A DNA stretch of 48,042 bases, from assembly GCA_017860575.1 (NCBI GenBank), contig JAGDMS010000003.1, positions 1 through 48,042 on the forward strand, given 5' to 3'. The notes beneath the pieces are model-generated. The model ran no database searches and was not told the origin of the DNA. It saw only the letters and a list, made by a program, of their open reading frames with translations. This DNA comes from Deltaproteobacteria bacterium. GTDB taxonomy: Bacteria > Desulfobacterota > Binatia > HRBIN30. The position numbers and the translations under genes are program-made. Below, piece by piece: positions 2,754 through 11,983 of the stretch. Position 1 is the stretch's first letter, and each line of letters opens with the position of its first letter.

Positions 2754-5700
2754 ATGCACGTCCATCGCAGCAATCGCACGGAGACCTTGCTGGCCGAGCT
2801 GGCGGCTGTGGTGGCGCGGCCGGCCGGCGGCCCGTTCGACCCGGAGTGCATCGTGGTCCAGGGCAAGGGCATGGAGCGCTGGCTGGCGATGGAGCTGGCG
2901 CGCCGCCTGGGGGTGTGGGCCAATCCCGACTTCCCCTTTCCACGCCACCTCATCGAACGCGCGCTCACCGCGGTGCTCGGTCCGCGGGAACCGGAGACGG
3001 ACTGCTTTACGCCGGACATTCTGCTGTGGGCGATCGCCGAATTGCTGCCCCGCTTGGTTGGCGGGGCCGAATTTGCACCCATTCGCCGCTACCTGGCACG
3101 CGAGGATCAGGGCCTGCGACGGGTTCAGCTGGCCCAACGCATCGCCGACACCTTCGATCAGTACCTGGTGTACCGCCCCAAGATGATTCTCGATTGGGAT
3201 GACGGCCACGACACGCACTGGCAGGCGGTTTTGTGGCGTGCGTTGACCGAGCACCTCGCCTCGCGCGACCACATCGCCGCCCGCGCCCGCGGCTTTCTCG
3301 ACAGCGTGCGGGCCACACGACCGCACCTCGATGGCTTCCCCGCGCGTGTGAATCTGTTCGGTGTCTCGACGTTACCGCCTTTGTACCTGGACCTCCTTAG
3401 CCGGTTGTCGCCCTGGGTCGAGCTGCATCTGTTCGTTCTCAGCCCAACGCGCGAATACTGGGGCGACATCCGGTCGCGCCGCGAGCTCCTGCGCCGGCCG
3501 CCGCGGCGCAGCGGCACGGGGACGGACATGGACAGGCTCGTGGATCAAGCGGAGGGCAACCCGCTCCTGGCCTCGATGGGCCGCCTGGGACGGGACTTCC
3601 AGCAGCTGCTCGAAGACGCCGGCGATTATCAGGAAGACGAACGTGATCTCTATCGCGACCCCGGTACCCGCACCATGCTGGCCGCCGTGCAATCCGACAT
3701 CCTCGCGTTGCAACACCGCGTAGCTCACGGCGAGGTGCCACCGCTCGCGCTTGATCCGGATGACGACTCGATCCGCGCACACGCCTGCCACAGCCCGATG
3801 CGCGAGGTGGAAGTGCTGCATGATCAACTGCTCGCGCTTTTCGACCGGGATTCGACACTGGAACCCCACGACGTGGTAGTGATGTCGCCGGACATCGACA
3901 CCTACGCACCGTTCGTCGAGGCCGTCTTCGGCCGCACGGGCGCGGACCGGCCCCGCATCCCGTATCGGATCGCCGACCGACACGTGCGCGCCACCGAAGT
4001 GGTGTTCGACGCGTTTACCAAGCTGCTCGACACCCTGCGCGGCCGCATGACGGCGAGCGATATTCTCGACCTGCTCGGCAACGACGTCATTGGCGCCCGC
4101 TTTGACCTTGCGGGCGAAGAGTTGGACCGGGTGCGCCGTTGGGTGGCCGACGCCGGCATTCGCTGGGGCGTGGACGCCGAACACCGGGAAGAATTTGGGC
4201 AGCCGGTCCTGCCTCAGAACACCTGGCGCTTCGGGCTCGACCGGCTGCTGCTCGGCTACGCCATGCCGGGCGAGCGCCGCACGCTCTTCGGCGGTGTGTT
4301 GCCCTACGACGATCTGGAGGGCACCGAAGCCGAGGCGCTCGGGCGATTGGCCGACTTCTGCGAGCAGCTCTTTGGGTTCCGTAGTGCGCTCCGGCAGCCG
4401 CGCAGCGTCGCCGCCTGGTGCGCTGCGCTGGCCGGCCTGGTCGACGGCATGCTCACCAGCACCGACGCCATCGCGTACCAGCACCAGCGCATCCGCGACG
4501 TTCTGGACGAGCTGGCCACGGCCGCGGAGCGTGCCCGCTTCACGGAGCCGATCGAACTCGACGCCGTGCGCGCGCAACTCGAGCAGCGCCTGCAGCGCGG
4601 TGCAACGGAACGCGGCTTTCTCGCCGGTGGCGTCACTTTTTGCGCCATGGTGCCGATGCGTACCATTCCCTTCCGCGTGCTCTGTCTGCTCGGCATGAAC
4701 GACGGCGCCTTTCCGCGCCTGCGCCGCCCGCTGGGCTTCGACCTCATGGCGCAGCAGCCGCGGCCTGGCGACCGCAGCGCGCGCGATGATGACCGCTACC
4801 TGTTTCTCGAAGCCCTGCTGTCGGCACGCGAGCGGCTCATCCTGACGTACGTCGGGCAAAGCATCCGCGACAACGCCCAGCTGCCACCGTCGGTGGTCGT
4901 CAGCGAACTACTCGACGTCCTCGACGAGTCTTTCGTTGCCGCGCCACCGCACCCGTCGGCCAGCAGCCGCGTTTGCATCTTCCACGCGCTGCAGTCGTTC
5001 AGTCCGGCATATTTCGACCAGCGTGATGCGCGCCTGTTCAGTTATGACGCCAGCGCCTGTGCCGGGGCGCGCAGTCTCGTGGGACCGCGCCAGCCGGCGC
5101 CCGCGTTCTTGTCCGCCGCAATGCCGCCGGACGGTTCCGCGGCACCGGCCGTGTCCCTCGACGATCTCGTGCAATTCTTCGACAACCCTGCCCGCGCGCT
5201 GCTGCAGCGGCGACTGGGGCTGCATCTGGGTGACGACGCGCCCGCGTTGCTCGACCGCGAACCGATTGCGCCGGACGCGCTCGAGCAGTGGAGCATCGGC
5301 GACGATCTGCTCGCCCGGACCCTCGAGGGCGACGATCTGCGCGTGGCATTCAGCGCCATCAAGGCCAGCGGTGTGCTACCGCTGGGAACGCCGGGCAATT
5401 GCCTCTATGAGGAACTCCAACCGCGGGTTACGGCCCTGGCGGCCTCGGCTGTCCCACTGATCGGAGGGACCCGCCTCGAGCCGGTCGTGGTGGACCGGAC
5501 ACTCGGCGACGGCACCCGCATCACTGGCGTGCTCCGCAACCTGTGGCCCGCCGGCCAGGTCGAGTGTACATACTCGAAGCTGGGCGGCACCCGTGAACTG
5601 CGCCTGTGGATCCGCCACGTCATTCTCAATTGGGCAGCACCGGAATCCGTCCCACGCGCCAGCACCCTCGTCGGACGGCCCGCGAAGGATGACGGACCGG

Positions 5701-6098
5701 TCTGCCTGCGCTTTCGGCCGGTCGGGAACCCCGAAGCCATCCTGCAGCAGCTGGTGGCGTTGTACCGCCGTGGCCAGCAGTGCCCGTTGCCCTTCTTCCC
5801 GAAATCCTCTCGCGCATACGTCGAGGCATTGCTTTCATCCGGCGGCGACGAGAGACGAGCAAGCACCGACGCGAAGAAGAAATTCAAGGTCGATCGACAT
5901 GCAGCAGTTCCGGGTGACGCGGAGGACCCGTATGTCCAGCAGATCTTCGGCAATACCAACCCGCTTGACCCCGCTTGCCCGCTGCTGTGCGTGACGGCAC
6001 CCCTGTACGACTCGTTCGACATGCGGACATTTGCTGAGATCGCGCGCGCCGTTTTCGAGCCCTTGCTGCAGCATCGGGAGGATGGAACGCTGTCATGA
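2754..6098 (+). CDS. recC: Exodeoxyribonuclease V gamma subunit
   Basis: HRSNRTE start, IVVQGKGMERWL, FDQYLVYRP, NPLLASMGRLGRDF, CHSPMREVEVLHD, PMRTIPFRV; ATGA overlap with recB. Confidence 0.96.
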   Translation: MHVHRSNRTETLLAELAAVVARPAGGPFDPECIVVQGKGMERWLAMELARRLGVWANPDFPFPRHLIERALTAVLGPREPETDCFTPDILLWAIAELLPRLVGGAEFAPIRRYLAREDQGLRRVQLAQRIADTFDQYLVYRPKMILDWDDGHDTHWQAVLWRALTEHLASRDHIAARARGFLDSVRATRPHLDGFPARVNLFGVSTLPPLYLDLLSRLSPWVELHLFVLSPTREYWGDIRSRRELLRRPPRRSGTGTDMDRLVDQAEGNPLLASMGRLGRDFQQLLEDAGDYQEDERDLYRDPGTRTMLAAVQSDILALQHRVAHGEVPPLALDPDDDSIRAHACHSPMREVEVLHDQLLALFDRDSTLEPHDVVVMSPDIDTYAPFVEAVFGRTGADRPRIPYRIADRHVRATEVVFDAFTKLLDTLRGRMTASDILDLLGNDVIGARFDLAGEELDRVRRWVADAGIRWGVDAEHREEFGQPVLPQNTWRFGLDRLLLGYAMPGERRTLFGGVLPYDDLEGTEAEALGRLADFCEQLFGFRSALRQPRSVAAWCAALAGLVDGMLTSTDAIAYQHQRIRDVLDELATAAERARFTEPIELDAVRAQLEQRLQRGATERGFLAGGVTFCAMVPMRTIPFRVLCLLGMNDGAFPRLRRPLGFDLMAQQPRPGDRSARDDDRYLFLEALLSARERLILTYVGQSIRDNAQLPPSVVVSELLDVLDESFVAAPPHPSASSRVCIFHALQSFSPAYFDQRDARLFSYDASACAGARSLVGPRQPAPAFLSAAMPPDGSAAPAVSLDDLVQFFDNPARALLQRRLGLHLGDDAPALLDREPIAPDALEQWSIGDDLLARTLEGDDLRVAFSAIKASGVLPLGTPGNCLYEELQPRVTALAASAVPLIGGTRLEPVVVDRTLGDGTRITGVLRNLWPAGQVECTYSKLGGTRELRLWIRHVILNWAAPESVPRASTLVGRPAKDDGPVCLRFRPVGNPEAILQQLVALYRRGQQCPLPFFPKSSRAYVEALLSSGGDERRASTDAKKKFKVDRHAAVPGDAEDPYVQQIFGNTNPLDPACPLLCVTAPLYDSFDMRTFAEIARAVFEPLLQHREDGTLS

Positions 6099-9000
6099 AG
6101 CCGCTCGATCCGCTCGCCGTCTCGCTGCGCGGCGCCCATCTCATCGAGGCGAGTGCCGGCACCGGCAAAACGCACACCATCACCACGTTGTATCTGCGGT
6201 TGCTGCTCGAGGCCGAGCGACCGGTCGGCAACATCCTGGTGGTGACCTACACCGACGCCGCCACGGCCGAGTTGCGGACACGCATCCGGCACCGCCTGCG
6301 CGCAGCGCTGCACGCGATCGAGGCCGGGGGCGCTTCCGACGACGAAGTGCTCGACCAGCTGCTGCAAGGGCGCCGCACCCCCGATCGGATTGAACATGAC
6401 CGCCGCATCTTGCTCGCCGCACTGCACGGGTTCGACGAGGCGGCGATCTTTACCATCCACGGCTTCTGCCAGCGGGCGCTGCAAGAGCACGCGTTCGAGA
6501 GTGGAGTGCTGTTCGACACCGAACTGATCACCAGCCAGGCCCCGCTGCTCGACGAGGTGGTCCAGGACTTCTGGGTACGCGAGCTGTGCGACGCGCCGCC
6601 AGCGTTCGTCCGCTCCCTGCAGAGGAAAAACCTCACGCCGACGAGCCTGGCGTCGCTGGCCGTCAAGGTCGTGGCACACCCGGACATGCCGGTGCTCCCC
6701 GAACACGTCGACGTCGATCTCGACGCGGCCCTCGCGGCCTGGCGGCAGGCGTACGGGCCGGCCGCGGCCATCTGGCGCGAGGCCCGTAACGACATCGTGC
6801 GTCTGCTGCGCGAATCACCGGCGCTGAATCGGGTGAAGTATAAGCCGGCGAGCATCGCCTCCAGGTGGGTGCCGCAAATGGACCGGGTGATGACGGACGA
6901 ATGGCCCGGGTTCTCCGCAGACTTCACCGACTTCACCAAGTTCGGAACAACGAAGCTGGCGGAGGGAACGAAGAAGAACGGCGTAACGCCGCGGCATGCG
7001 TTTTTCGACGCTTGTGAAACCTTGCTCGAAGCCGAACAGCAAGTGTGCGACCAATTGGCGGCCCGGTTGCTGCAGTTTCAGCGTACGTTCGTGGAGTATG
7101 CTCGCGCCGAGTTGCGCCGCCGCAAGGAGGCGGCGCACGTACAATTCTTCGACGATCTCCTGCAGCGCCTGGACCAGGCCCTGGCCGGGTCCGGCGGACC
7201 GGCCCTGGCCGAGAAGATCCGCGCCCAGTTCGGCGCCGCACTGATCGACGAGTTTCAGGACACCGATCCCGTGCAGTATCGGATTTTTCACCGCCTCTAC
7301 CACGGCACGGAGGCCACGCTGTTCCTGATCGGCGATCCGAAGCAGGCCATCTACGCCTTCCGCGGCGCCGATGTCTTCGCCTACATCGCCGCCAAGGCGA
7401 ATACGGTGGACGGCCACACGCTGCTCACCAACTGGCGCTCCGACCGTAGCCTCGTCGAGGCGGTCAATGAGTTGTTCGCAAACGCTGATGCACAGTTCCT
7501 GTTGCCAGAGATTCCATTCGAGCGGGCCAAACCGAGTGCCGCGGATTGTCTCGGCGGCACGGCCGCCGGCAGCGCACCGTTGCAAATTCTGTTCGTGCGT
7601 CGCCCGGGTGACGACGCCATCACCAAGACCTGGGGCAACGACCATCTGCCCGACATGATCGCCACCGAGATCGTCCGCTTCCTGGGCTCTGGCACAACGA
7701 TCAAAGACAAGGCGGTCGCGCCGCACCAACGAGCAGGCGAGCAAGGTACAAGTCGCCCTGCGCGCGCGGCGGGTCCCCAGCGTCCTACAAACGCAGGCCA
7801 GCGTCTTCTCCAGCCCCGAAGCGGTCGAGATCGAGCGGGTGGTCCGCGCCATCGCCAACCCGGGAGATACGGGAGCGGTGAAGGCCGCCCTCGCCACCGC
7901 GGTGCTGGGCCTCAGCGGCGACGAACTTTTCGCCCTTCAGGAGGACGAACGCGGCTGGGACGCCTGGATGGGCCGCATGCAGGACTGGCACACGACCTGG
8001 CTGCAGCAGGGCTTCGTCGTCGCATTTCAGCGGGTGATCGAGGAGTGCGATGTGCCGCGGCGTCTCCTCGGCCTCAGCGACGGCGAGCGCCGGCTCACCA
8101 ACGTGTTCCACCTCGGCGAACTGCTGCACGCAGCGGCCATCGAGCGGCACGGCGGGCCGCTGGCGCCGGTGCGCTGGCTGAGCGAGATGCGCGCCGACGC
8201 CGCCGAGCGCGGTGACCTGGCCGGTGACACCGCACAGGTTCGTCTTGAATGCGACGAGGCCGCAGTGAAGCTGGTGACCGTCCACAAGGCCAAGGGGCTG
8301 CAGTATCCAATCGTCTACTGCCCGTTCCTGTGGGACGGTGCGCTCTTACGAGAGGCCGACGAGGCATACCCGCGCTTCCACGATCCCAACGACAACCATC
8401 GGCTGAAACTCGACTTGGGCTCACCGGATCTGGCGCAGCACCTGGCACGCGCCGAGCACGAGGCGCTGGCCGAAAACCTGCGCCTCCTGTACGTCGCACT
8501 GACACGGGCGCAGCACCGCTGCACCATCGTCTGGGGCGCGTTCAACGAAGCGCAAACCTCGGCGCTCGGGTATTTGTTGCATCAGCCCACGTCGGATGGG
8601 CCTGTTGAACACCGCAAAGACGTGCTTCTAGAGCCCCAGCACGAACGGTCTCAGAATCCATCAAATGAATCACCTTCCGCTCACCCTGAGCCTGTCGACG
8701 GGTGCTTCCGCACAATAGCGACAAGGTCTAAGGGTGGCGGCGATCTCGCCTCGGCCACCGCCGCGAGCATCAAGTCGCTCGTCGAAAGGGGTGACGACGC
8801 CTTGCTCGCCGACCTCCATGCGTTGGCGGCGAGAGCGGCGGGCACCATCGCGATCGGCCAATTGTCCGAACAGTCGGACGAGTCCTACAACGGCGCAGCG
8901 AGGCCGCCGCAGAAACTGCAATGCCGCACGGCTTGTCGCACCTTACCCCTGACCTGGCGCACATCGAGCTTCACGGCATTGACGGCCGCCGCAAGGGAGA

Positions 9001-9905
9001 TCAGCCTGCCGGCGGAGGAAGGTCAGGACCGCGATGAGGAGGCGGCAGCGATTGCCGAGCGGGCGTCGCGTCCACCCAGCACGGCTGCACCGACCTTACT
9101 CCTGCACGACTTCCCAAGCGGCACGCGGCCGGGGCTATTGGTCCACGACATCTTCGAACACCTCGACTTCCAGAACTCCGAGCCCGCGGCGCTCCAGCAG
9201 CAGGTTTCAGGGGCAATTACCCGCTTCGGTTTCGAGCCACGCTGGACCGACCCGTTGTGCGCGGCGATTCGTGATATCCTTGACACGCCGTTCGACGGCG
9301 GGTCCGAGCCGCTGACCTTGCGTCGGATTCCGCAGGCCGCGCGCCTCAATGAGTTGGAGTTCCTTTTCCCGGTCGCCGACCGACGTGACGACGGCGAGGG
9401 TGCGCCGGTACCGCCTATGGTGCTGACGCGCGGGCGCCTGGCGGCCGTGTTTGCCGACCATGCGCGCGCACCCGTGCCACCCGACTACGCTCAGCGGGTT
9501 GGTGCACTGGGGTTCGCCCCGCTCGCCGGCTTTCTGCGCGGCTTCATTGATCTGGTATTCACCCACGCCGGCCGCTGGTACCTCATCGATTACAAGTCGA
9601 ATGCCCTCGGTTCCACGGTGCGGGATTACGATACGCCGCGACTGGCGTCGGTCATGGACGCGCACCATTACTTCCTGCAGTACCACCTCTACGTTGTCGC
9701 CCTGCACCGCTATCTGTCCGCCCGCCTCCCGGACTACAACTACGACCGGCATTTCGGCGGTGTCTATTACCTGTTCCTGCGGGGCATGTCGCCGGCGCAT
9801 GCGCTCGGCTGCGGCGTGTTCCGCGACCGGCCGGCGCGCGAACTCGTGGAAGCATTGTCCGCCGCGTTGGCCGGCGAGACCTCGGCTCCCGGAGCGACGG
9901 CATGA
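6095..9905 (+). pseudogene. recB: Exodeoxyribonuclease V beta subunit, frameshifted at about 7721 (split into ORFs 6095-8215 and 7839-9905)
   Basis: IEASAGTGKT and IDEFQDTD in frame 1. The sequence continues in the +1 frame from 7722 (RTNEQA...SVFSSPEA), then VTVHKAKGLQY, YVALTRA and the nuclease motif GFIDLVF...IDYKSN. The expected DIAVL-type motif is missing at the junction. Could be an assembly error. Confidence 0.88.
8598..8729. mobile_element. ~132-bp hairpin mini-element (MITE/REP-like) inserted in frame in recB
   Basis: 8675-8704 matches 10441-10470 at 29/30 nt; 8621-8648 matches 10388-10415 at 22/28 nt; AT-richer central spacer; boundaries approximate. Confidence 0.75.
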
Positions 9906-11983
9906 TCCCAACCATCGAATCGCTGCGCCACGCCGAGATCCTCTCGCCACTCGACGCGCACTTCGCCTGCGCGATCGGACGCATCGCCGGCGAGCCCCGG
10001 CCGGAGGTGTTGCTGGCGGCGGCGCTGGTCAGCCGCCATGTCAGCAACGGACACGTCTGCCTCGACCTCGCACAGGTCACGGAGCGCGACGGGTTGGTGG
10101 ACGAAGGCGGTGAACGGCTCGACGTCACTTGGCCGCCGCTGGGGCAGTGGCTCGACGCGCTGCGCTCGAGCCCGATGGTCAGCAGCGGCACGGCACCGGC
10201 GCCGATGGTTCTGGATACTGCGGGCCGGCTGTATCTACGGCGCTACTGGGCGCATCAGGAGGGCCTGGCTGCCGCGATTCGTGCCCGGGCGATCCAGGTG
10301 GACTCGGCAATCGACGGCGCGTGGCTGCGGCGGACCCTCGACCGCCTCTTTCCCCGCGACAGTGGGGTTTTCGACATGCCCGGCCATCGTGCGTCGACAG
10401 GCTCAGCACGAGCGGAGAGATCATTACTTTCAAAGGAGAATTCCGCTCACCCTGAGCCTGTCGAAGGGTGTGGTTTCGATTTATCGACAGTCCCTGCTGC
10501 TGCGGATAAAGCCGAGCCGGACTGGCAGCGGGTTGCCGCGTTGCTGGCGGCGCAGCGGCGGTTCTGCGTCATCTCCGGCGGGCCCGGGACCGGCAAGACC
10601 TACACCGTGGTGAAGATTCTCGCGCTGCTGGTGGAACAGCAGCAGGCACGCCGGCCGGACACGCCGCTGCGCGTGATCCTGGTGGCGCCCACGGGCAAGG
10701 CGGCCGCACGTCTGGCGGAGTCGATCCAACGGGCGAAGGCAACGCTACCGTGCTCCGCGGAGGTGCTGCGGGCCATTCCGGAGGACGCGAAGACGATCCA
10801 CCGCTGCCTCGGTTCCAAGGGTGGCAGCTCGACGGACTTTCGCCACAACGCCGACAATCCGTTGCTGGCCGACATCGTCCTGGTCGACGAAGCCTCGATG
10901 GTGGATCTGGCGCTCATGCGCCGCCTGGTGGCCGCCGTGCCGCCGGCAGCACGGCTGATTCTGCTTGGCGACAAAGACCAACTCGCGTCGGTGGAGGCGG
11001 GCGCCGTGCTGGGTGACATCTGCAACACCGGCGCGCCGCGAAGCTACTCGCGACCGCTGGTGGCGGAAATCAAGGAAAGCAGTGGGGACCGCCTGCCGTT
11101 GGAAACGAGCGCGCCGGCCACGACCGGCATCTGGGACTGCATGGTGCAACTGAGGCGCAGCTACCGATACGGTCCGCACAGCGGGATCGGGCAACTGGCG
11201 CGGGCCATCAACGACGGCGACACCGCCGCGGCTCTCGACATTCTCGCCTCGGACCGGTACCCGGACGTGAGCCTGGTCGAAACGTCCACCGGTCCAAACC
11301 TCTCGCACGCCCTCGAGGCATCCGTTATCGCAGGCTTCGATGGCTATCTGCGCCTGCACGCGCCCGAGGAGCAGTTGCACGCCCTCGAACATTTCCGCGT
11401 GCTGTGCGCGCATCGTCGCGGTCCGTGCGGGGTCGAGGTCGTGAACCGTCAGATTGAGGACATTCTCGCCACCGCCGGACGGATTCAGCCGGAGGGACAG
11501 TACTACATCGGGCGGCCGATCATCGTCAGCCGCAACGATTACCAGCTGAATCTGTTCAACGGCGATGTCGGCCTGCTGCTGGATGCCGACGGGAAAAAAG
11601 AGGACAGTCCCCCTAACAAGGGGACTGTCCCCGGCAACGGGCCGGAAGGCACGCACCCGCGAGCGGAGGCCGGTCACCGCACCGCGGTCTTCCTCGGCAC
11701 CGGCGGCACGTTGCGCCGGCTTTCTCCGTCGCGGCTGCCACCGCACGAAACCGTGTACGCTATGAGCGTACACAAGAGCCAGGGCTCGGAGTTCGACGAG
11801 GTGGCGGTCCTGCTGCCGCCACGCCCATCGCCGGTGATATCACGCGAGCTGCTCTACACCGCCGTGACCCGGGCCCGCCACCGCGTCACCATCCACGCCA
11901 GCCGGGAGGTCGTCGAGCACACCATCACCCACCGCATCGACCGCGCCTCCGGCCTCCGGGATGCATTGTGGGGCGAAGGGTGA
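9902..11983 (+). CDS. recD: Exodeoxyribonuclease V alpha subunit
   Basis: YLRRYW, DWQ, Walker A GGPGTGKT, APTGKAAARL, TIHR, VDEASMVD, GDKDQLASVEAG, NGDVG, AMSVHKSQGSEF, LLYTAVTRA; ATGA overlap with recB. Confidence 0.96.
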   Translation: MIPTIESLRHAEILSPLDAHFACAIGRIAGEPRPEVLLAAALVSRHVSNGHVCLDLAQVTERDGLVDEGGERLDVTWPPLGQWLDALRSSPMVSSGTAPAPMVLDTAGRLYLRRYWAHQEGLAAAIRARAIQVDSAIDGAWLRRTLDRLFPRDSGVFDMPGHRASTGSARAERSLLSKENSAHPEPVEGCGFDLSTVPAAADKAEPDWQRVAALLAAQRRFCVISGGPGTGKTYTVVKILALLVEQQQARRPDTPLRVILVAPTGKAAARLAESIQRAKATLPCSAEVLRAIPEDAKTIHRCLGSKGGSSTDFRHNADNPLLADIVLVDEASMVDLALMRRLVAAVPPAARLILLGDKDQLASVEAGAVLGDICNTGAPRSYSRPLVAEIKESSGDRLPLETSAPATTGIWDCMVQLRRSYRYGPHSGIGQLARAINDGDTAAALDILASDRYPDVSLVETSTGPNLSHALEASVIAGFDGYLRLHAPEEQLHALEHFRVLCAHRRGPCGVEVVNRQIEDILATAGRIQPEGQYYIGRPIIVSRNDYQLNLFNGDVGLLLDADGKKEDSPPNKGTVPGNGPEGTHPRAEAGHRTAVFLGTGGTLRRLSPSRLPPHETVYAMSVHKSQGSEFDEVAVLLPPRPSPVISRELLYTAVTRARHRVTIHASREVVEHTITHRIDRASGLRDALWGEG
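10364..10494. mobile_element. Second copy of the ~132-bp hairpin mini-element, in frame in recD
   Basis: Perfect IR TCGACAGGCTCAG (10394-10406) / CTGAGCCTGTCGA (10452-10464) plus GAGCGGA/TCCGCTC; degenerate outer IR; encodes STGSARAE...SAHPEPVEG. Confidence 0.8.
11602..11630. repeat. REP-like palindrome within recD
   Basis: Perfect 11-bp IR GGACAGTCCCC-ctaacaa-GGGGACTGTCC inside an apparently inserted peptide (KKEDSPPNKGTVP). Confidence 0.7.

Follow-up and report, generated by a model that had tools for sequence, protein, structure and literature searches.

Why should two neighboring and otherwise unrelated genes, recB and recD, each carry in frame what appears to be the same short piece of DNA? 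The question is raised by a stretch of 48,042 nucleotides (contig JAGDMS010000003.1 of assembly GCA_017860575.1; hereafter the window) from a wetland-dwelling Deltaproteobacteria bacterium, in which an insert of about 132 bp with palindromic structure sits within each of the two genes. Taking our observations as a whole, we consider it likely that the inserts are copies of a non-autonomous doublet of hairpins, whose spread was linked to a nuclease and whose intragenic copies are tolerated as loops. The genome in question (G000; 5.80 Mb, 64% G+C) is a fragmented metagenome bin of 601 contigs with ~6% contamination. Related-genome comparisons covered 31 genomes including G000, among which G003, of the same genus (RecD 87% identical at the protein level), was the reference for empty sites. 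We also used contigs, that is consensus sequences, from runs of three studies (X1, X5 and X6) and from a run of a fourth study (X8), of which X1 may be the source sample of G000.

The two copies share a 30-mer, located at 8676–8705 in recB and at 10442–10471 in recD, with two mismatches between the copies. There is no third match to it in the window at up to three mismatches, and none of 100 shuffles gave any match. An upstream arm can also be aligned between the copies, the spacers separating the two arms being unrelated in sequence, and in the frame of its gene each copy is free of stop codons, with the core read as SAHPEPVDGC in recB and SAHPEPVEGC in recD. An earlier note on this DNA, made from the sequence alone, had described a shared 30-mer matching at 29 of 30 positions (ours ends one base later and has two differences), a shared upstream arm with unrelated spacers, a length near 132 bp and a stop-free addition of about 44 residues containing SAHPEPV(D/E)GC. 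Alignment and translation of both copies bear out this description, the length being 132 bp both for the gap against G003 in recD (10360–10491) and for the recB copy (8598–8729).

The recD copy is a young, precise and lineage-specific insertion. On the forward strand it represents a net addition of 132 bp relative to G003 (profile E = 3e-33), the DNA alignment of the two genes showing a single gap of exactly that length with one base of positional ambiguity; judged by its terminal inverted repeats, the copy occupies 10364–10494, or 131 bp. Its left hairpin module (10389–10415, + strand) has a loop complementary to that of the right module and contributes the GAGCGG half of a central stem, while the right module (10443–10470, + strand) supplies the CCGCTC half followed by a hairpin of CACCC, a 13-nt loop and GGGTG. 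Folded as single-stranded DNA, the copy forms a stem of 13 bp plus 7 bp with z scores of –3.3 for the + strand and –4.6 for the – strand, and none of 200 shuffles folded as well. We call the copy young because this hairpin is intact and because a genome of the same genus offers a precise empty site. The insert is missing in all eight aligned orthologues, and residues 159–197 are spanned by none of the RecD matches that the 31 genomes gave, except in G000 itself. The site corresponds to residues 147/150 of Escherichia coli RecD, just ahead of the (D/N)WQ residues and at the junction of the N-terminal domain with the first helicase domain. Two X1 contigs, covering 9094–10465 and 10444–10600, cross the left and the right junction, respectively, and no contig of X1, X5, X6 or X8 skips the element in recB or recD, with recD being poorly covered by contigs of the runs other than X1.

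The recB copy (8598–8729, + strand, in frame; profile E = 2e-14) is the older insertion and has decayed; it sits in a linker that varies among orthologues. Its left module has decayed and its right module (8676–8705, + strand), which encodes the SAHPEPVDGC peptide, is conserved with a 5-bp stem and a 13-nt loop. The copy folds no better than shuffles (z = –0.6 and +0.1), in keeping with the contrast drawn in the earlier note between a preserved 13 + 7-bp stem in recD and a decayed one in recB. Six of the eight aligned orthologues are without the insert, ~44 residues being missing there. It lies ~25 residues after the VALTRA stretch of motif VI in a linker of variable length, the alignment with E. 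coli RecB extending up to residue 815 before the insert and starting again from residue 886 after it, so that the alignments with the E. coli proteins support the placement proposed earlier for both inserts, namely after helicase motif VI in RecB and before the DWQ motif in RecD. Other lineages have also acquired insertions in the RecB linker: that of G003 consists of AGTCCAA-type repeats encoding SKVQGPKSK, and that of G028 contains a module related to ours but with an expanded loop. Because these three inserts differ from one another, the linker appears to be a permissive spot that has been struck independently at least three times. Contigs of X1, X5 and X6 span the recB copy with 0–1 differences, and a contig of X8 covers 8602–8939.

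How might the proteins accommodate such additions? An AlphaFold model of RecD built with nine sequences (mean pLDDT 79.5, pTM 0.79) has a normal fold outside the inserts, and its only long segments of low confidence are residues 154–203, the element insert, and residues 565–591, a second insert. The model suggests that the RecD insert would be tolerated as a surface loop, and the ~44 residues added to each of RecB and RecD are probably floppy.

The second insert in recD is an older in-frame one (11585–11653, + strand; residues 562–584) that is common only to G000 and G003. It contains a palindrome with an 11-bp stem (11602–11630) made of the end sequences of the element in the order right end, left end. 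This palindrome resembles an end-to-end junction or a footprint, and BLAST found just three similar places in the genome.

The two copies in the window belong to a dispersed family. The genome contains 27 matches to the 30-mer at up to two mismatches and 78 at up to six, a profile search returned 89 non-overlapping loci, and an exact 15-mer loop pattern occurs 69 times compared to zero for the reversed control. Aligned copies show a common layout of terminal repeat, left module, spacer of ~25 nt, right module and terminal repeat, in which the ends are 12-bp terminal inverted repeats with the consensus GGGACTGTCGAT ... ATCGACAGTCCC and 10 of the 13 full-length loci measure 131 bp from one end to the other. 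Each module is composed of a 13-nt loop, which reads TGAGCYYGTCGAA or the complement of this, closed by a 5-bp stem. Across 54 aligned loci the two modules are inverted relative to each other, forming a doublet (with a pairing distance of ~60 nt in relatives), and the whole unit can also be folded as one long hairpin. A second subfamily has different ends and a CATGC/GCATG stem. Two of the intergenic copies, one on C15 and one on C334, have counterparts in relatives that are without ~150–200 bp at the corresponding place, with spacers too diverged for the exact borders to be drawn, and at the sole precise empty site, that of recD, any target duplication is at most 1 bp.

The stems of these modules tell us something about the form in which the repeat matters. 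At each of the five stem positions 108–120 of 161 modules keep the pair, compared to 25–79 when the partner is shifted by one position, and three fully complementary stems are found around one and the same loop: CACCC/GGGTG (32 modules), CGTGC/GCACG (21) and CATGC/GCATG (17). Because pairing is kept and three complementary versions of the stem exist on one loop, the hairpin itself is under selection, and this points to a single-stranded nucleic acid as the relevant form.

At least 5–6 of the ~89 loci lie in frame inside genes, with Pfam domains recognizable on both sides of the copies. The RecG copy (on contig C82) adds 45 residues that are absent in G001, G002 and G004 and are present in a diverged version in G003, an old copy common to the two genomes. 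In a TlyA-like S4/FtsJ methyltransferase 104 residues are added that are absent in all five relatives compared, and in a two-domain family III CoA-transferase (C400) an addition of 43–45 residues, absent in G001 and G002, occupies the inter-domain linker; a paralogue of the latter on C360 probably carries the element in its inter-domain linker as well. All six in-frame copies (recB, recD, C82, C505, C400 and C360) read the right module in the identical frame, yielding a peptide of the (S/T)A(H/R)(P/A)E.VE type. This sameness deserves attention because four of the six frames of the module, three besides the one used, are stop-free by reading of the sequence; the number of cases is six, two of them defined the finding in the first place, and copies in other frames lie in open reading frames (ORFs) that cannot be confirmed as genes. 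Three of the six hosts, RecB, RecD and RecG, are recombination helicase/nuclease subunits. Copies in ORFs on C288, C45 and C404 (in other frames) and on C444 were not counted as genic, there being no Pfam support for these ORFs, and copies on C334, C2 and C15, which are upstream of or near the start of recognizable domains, were not counted as intragenic.

Several further observations concern these host genes. The insert in the TlyA-like gene (C505:7089–7400, locus L021) is 312 bp long, in frame, and a nested composite of two repeat families, the nested one being a palindrome of the CCCCTCCTT..AAGGAGGGG type; a query containing that repeat gave 50 BLAST hits in the genome. Fusions of two family III CoA-transferase domains, in frames of ~800–880 residues, are numerous in the genus, with 21 matches in G003, and the element-bearing ones of G000 are at C400:20467–23058 and C360:1–2055. 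The RecD insert peptide also matches C186:31–183, C503:20–220 and C437:6957–7118, in open frames of 630, 321 and 388 codons, respectively; these may be further in-frame copies, two of them at contig starts.

A candidate for the enzyme associated with the family is found among the GIY-YIG nucleases. G000 has three matches to PF01541, one of which is a small stand-alone ORF at C51:6780–7091. Its single-domain product of 104 residues (P0004) reaches 38.1 bits (cut-off 22.6) and, among solved structures, comes nearest to the UPF0213 proteins 1zg2 and 1ywl; an NCBIfam scan assigned it to no family. The gene lies between two inverted modules of the kind described above, at C51 6706–6735 (+) and 7070–7099 (–), where the stem is extended to 9 bp. 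We found no parent insertion sequence (IS) with the ends of the element; the GIY-YIG cassette has the same modules and different outer ends. In the related genomes we analyzed 24 of 26 homologue loci, leaving out L186, a 36-residue fragment, and L187, which shares a contig with L185. A module stands beside the gene at all seven loci with at least 60% identity versus 2 of the 17 below this level, and five of the seven close homologues have modules on both sides by the 15-mer scan, with a sixth, L177, showing by eye a more diverged module on its other side. More distant homologues are flanked by co-varying, expanded modules with an extra hairpin in the loop, the same type as in the recB insert of G028. 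The six genomes with a homologue of at least 60% identity contain 56–101 modules each and the other 25 contain 0–22, the genomes being related and not independent; G003, the genome with the empty site in recD, has two, making the comparison within one genus 2 versus 57–69. The association between nuclease and module count is suggestive of cognate pairing. At another locus (L164, G006:C110) a tandem array of seven modules with a 40-nt period lies directly 3′ of a GIY-YIG gene.

The module is by no means confined to this lineage. Its exact 24-mer is found in at least 124 stretches from many phyla, the taxa including Nitrospirota, Eremiobacterota, Alpha-, Beta- and Gammaproteobacteria, Bacteroidota, Dehalococcoidia, Binatia, Thermodesulfobacteriota, Clostridia and others, and a complete module-gene-module cassette is also present in a Nitrospinaceae contig (locus L089). 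The exact 24-mer also occurs in contigs labeled Rickettsia typhi (a metagenome bin) and Rickettsiales (L061 and L051), which raises the question of a kinship between some families of Rickettsia palindromic elements (RPEs) and this module.

Before considering a mechanism, we need to pay attention to the state of the host operon. By ORF list and Pfam, recC, recB and recD form an operon in the window, in which the stop of one gene overlaps the start of the next. The first gene, recC (2754–6098, + strand; Exonuc_V_gamma E = 2.5e-95, RecC_C E = 2.8e-53), has a stop that overlaps the recB start, and recD (9902–11983, + strand), whose start overlaps the recB stop, is an intact ORF of 693 codons with RecD_N, AAA_19/AAA_30 and UvrD_C_2 domains, its product matching E. 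coli RecD at E = 7.5e-127. A scan of 8000–11000 against Rfam gave no match at E up to 1, so nothing in this region indicates a self-splicing element or an RNA family described so far.

The gene between them, recB, appears as two overlapping ORFs (6095–8215 and 7839–9905) because a 23-bp deletion relative to G003 shifts the frame, with loss of the PGDIAVLC codons; DNA alignment and three-frame translations place the junction at 7719–7720 (+ strand). The 5′ part (6095–7719, + strand), which encodes the N-terminal domains of a UvrD-type helicase (UvrD-helicase E = 5.5e-52), runs in its own frame up to the junction and its translation turns to nonsense beyond about residue 545. The 3′ part (7720–9905, + strand), encoding the helicase C-terminal domains, the linker and the PD-(D/E)XK nuclease (Pfam UvrD_C and PDDEXK_1), is in another frame (the ORF 7839–9905, open from 7659) and aligns with residues 600–815 and 886–1176 of E. 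coli RecB. The deletion is found only in this assembly. Parts of 7600–7900 are without cover in X1, X5 and X6, and a contig of X8 stops fitting at 7723, where it carries 29 loose letters, a break that gives a weak hint that an intact form of recB exists. With the deletion upstream of the insert, the earlier claim that new peptide is created is not assured as regards a working RecB.

We propose the following scenario by analogy with described nuclease-repeat systems. The nuclease would recognize the hairpin modules in single-stranded DNA, and would drive, or would once have driven, the spread of the doublets, in parallel with the Ssn nucleases and their SRM repeats (Chenal et al., 2025, PMC11893778) or with RAYTs and REPINs. 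The insertions would land more or less anywhere, and within genes only those might survive whose net length is a multiple of three, whose frame is stop-free and polar and whose site is a surface linker. The 44 inserted residues would then be translated as disordered loops, with perhaps little effect on the enzyme. The earlier note had similarly read the pair as a non-autonomous palindromic element in coding sequence, and had suggested looking for further copies of the 30-mer, for empty sites in orthologues and for a nuclease or transposase gene with the same flanks; all three came to light, as the 89 profile loci, the insert-free recD (8/8) and recB (6/8) orthologues and the GIY-YIG gene between the same hairpin modules.

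A number of points weigh against this scenario. The recD junction gives only one ambiguous base, no transposition, cleavage or target duplication having been shown, and the intergenic empty sites at C15 and C334 are imprecise. The association between nuclease and copy number rests on kin genomes, which do not form an independent sample. The nuclease of G000 is substituted at conserved positions (YSA for YVG) and may be inactive; given the level of contamination of the bin, its contig may also derive from another organism. The modules fall outside the published SRM pattern, and membership of the nuclease in the Ssn clade (cd10448) is not established. On the protein side, the low pLDDT of the RecD inserts is partly due to the empty alignment columns there, and the frameshifting deletion in recB makes it doubtful that the recB insert is translated in a working protein.

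The last point leads to a different view of the locus, according to which the RecBCD operon is in decay: with selection on the locus gone, the inserts would be neutral and would owe their in-frame state to the accident of the net 132 bp. A real and fixed deletion would indeed mean a decaying RecBCD, in which the recD insertion may simply have met no opposition from selection. The deletion at 7719/7720 removes conserved helicase residues as well as shifting the frame, any addition of 132 bp preserves the frame without selection, and 7 of the 11 other full-length copies are likewise open in the frame used here. We nevertheless regard operon decay as an unlikely explanation: recC and recD are each uninterrupted over their full length and match their domains normally, the deletion is unconfirmed by independent contigs and an X8 contig stops fitting exactly there, and in-frame copies are also present in the unbroken genes for RecG, the TlyA-like enzyme and the CoA-transferase. 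Moreover, the recB insert is identical in contigs from other studies and so is older than some spread of the population. The same contigs bear on the suspicion that the repeat was simply mis-joined into recB and recD during assembly. Repeats attract mis-joins in a bin of 601 contigs, and the depth over 10428–10528 is inflated by other copies; even so, an artefact is scarcely credible, considering that X1, X5 and X6 contigs span the recB copy with at most one difference, that an X8 contig covers 8602–8939, that two X1 contigs cross both recD junctions, and that for both inserts the frame is kept and the same gene continues on either flank.

Other views grant that the repeats are real and differ as to what they are for. 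The modules might be sites that serve the host, recognized by a domesticated nuclease and spread by recombination, with the genic copies as by-products. Such a role, limiting the recombination of incoming single-stranded DNA, is reported for NTS and SsnA of Neisseria by Chenal et al. (PMC11893778); the nuclease is single-copy against ~89 element loci, as RAYTs are relative to their repeats, and an exact 24-mer shared by many phyla suggests that a conserved partner protein constrains it. The precise 132-bp recD insertion with its terminal inverted repeats, however, resembles the insertion of an element and not recombination between homologous flanks, the copy number varies from 2 to 57–69 within one genus, and the nesting of a second repeat in one copy is typical of selfish repeats, for which reasons domestication seems to us rather improbable. 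It is very unlikely that the inserts are adaptive, that is, regulatory or interaction loops selected in RecB and RecD. The common frame of the right module in 6/6 in-frame copies and the over-representation of repair and recombination helicases, three of the six hosts, would fit such a role, but the inserts are absent in close relatives whose proteins are otherwise conserved, the DNA of the recB copy shows decay, the inserts are predicted to be unstructured, and the unrelated inserts of G003 and G028 in the same RecB linker speak for a tolerant site, not for any specific function.

Returning to the nuclease-linked spread of a non-autonomous doublet, one may ask how far the idea can be extended. 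At its boldest, the module would stand for a class of elements that nucleases carry throughout the bacteria and that is separate from the SRM repeats of Ssn. This class would combine a UPF0213-like GIY-YIG nuclease with a loop-tagged hairpin, its doublets would be shaped for intragenic survival by the net 132 bp and by the polar, stop-free frame found in all six intragenic copies, and its hits in repair genes (RecB, RecD and RecG here, uvrA, uvrB and dnaE2 in the literature) would not be due to chance. We consider this extended version doubtful. If it were true, the recurrent hits in repair genes would reflect targeting of DNA that becomes single-stranded there, or an advantage that the element gains when the enzymes acting on its hairpins are perturbed. 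Irrespective of this extension, one genome holds a young insertion in recD, a decayed one in recB and an old shared one in recG, and offers a datable example of selfish hairpins that add peptides. For an oddity that has been known for a long time it supplies a concrete candidate enzyme, the small GIY-YIG nuclease, and with the candidate named the mechanism becomes testable by the assays published for Ssn nucleases. Our results also suggest that a large branch of such nuclease-repeat pairs, extending across phyla, escapes the SRM pattern as published. For annotation, repeats of this kind yield spurious ORFs and odd 'insertions' in conserved proteins of many metagenome-assembled genomes.

Lastly, we compare the element with known systems. 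An in-frame palindromic repeat within a conserved protein is an event of a kind already in print, that of the RPEs and of intragenic REPs (PMC3733652). RPEs, as summarized in passages of that paper from the work of Ogata et al. and of Claverie & Ogata, are dispersed palindromes of ~100–150 bp found in frame in apparently functional genes, to which they add a few dozen residues, and the likeness to our element in size, dispersal, frame and added residues makes the comparison drawn in the earlier note a fair one as to the kind of event. RPE hosts are obligate intracellular bacteria, whereas G000 is free-living and offers a candidate nuclease partner; the sequence family is likely a different one. 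The REP dimers tagged with GTAG or CGTC that are treated in passages of Di Nocera, De Gregorio & Rocco (2013; PMC3733652) are mostly intergenic, with an intragenic minority that encodes 20–30 or more residues and is often found in replication and repair genes such as uvrA, uvrB, dnaE2 and ligase. They resemble our element, as far as those passages go, in the inverted hairpin dimers, in the intragenic minority and in the repair-gene hosts, which here are recB, recD and recG; recB and recD are not among the examples in these passages. Tagged REPs have their GTAG or CGTC tag at the end of the stem; here there is no tag outside the stem, and (C/T)GTC lies inside the 13-nt loop. The unit studied here has in addition a 12-bp terminal inverted repeat and a fixed length of 131 bp.

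A parallel for the nuclease-repeat pair is that of Ssn, a GIY-YIG nuclease of one domain that, according to Chenal et al. (2025; PMC11893778), cleaves single-stranded DNA next to hairpin repeats. These repeats (NTS/SRM) flank the nuclease gene in an IS-like layout and are strewn over the genome, and the authors note the parallel with RAYT/REP. On this account the likeness extends to a single-domain GIY-YIG protein of ~100 residues, a gene flanked on both sides by inverted hairpins, tens to hundreds of copies, a repeat sequence that co-varies with the nuclease lineage and an IS-like repeat-gene-repeat architecture. The differences are that the GTC tag is 5′ of the stem in Ssn repeats and in the loop of our module, and that NTS are rarely intragenic (2%), compared to at least 5–6 in-frame genic loci of ~89 here. 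The SRM pattern gave no hits within 250 bp of the 24 GIY-YIG loci, and its 69 genome-wide hits are unrelated to the element. A literature search linking GIY-YIG with REP, REPIN or UPF0213 yielded only the Ssn paper, and one on the module and its peptide strings returned one unrelated paper and, within the library searched, no printed description of this exact motif.

With the REPIN-RAYT systems the element shares the non-autonomous inverted doublet, the many copies and a partner gene in about one copy flanked by repeats. Identity with them was rejected, as none of the six Y1_Tnp loci has a module in the fetched flanks and the GIY-YIG locus, as positive control, has two. Of the features of a classical miniature inverted-repeat transposable element, 12-bp terminal inverted repeats are present here, and any target-site duplication at the one precise empty site is at most 1 bp. 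The layout of the element is both Ssn-like and REPIN-like, with membership among the Ssn systems not established. What it adds to the known kind is a plausible nuclease partner outside the SRM definition, a RecB linker that was struck three times and a bias toward one reading frame.

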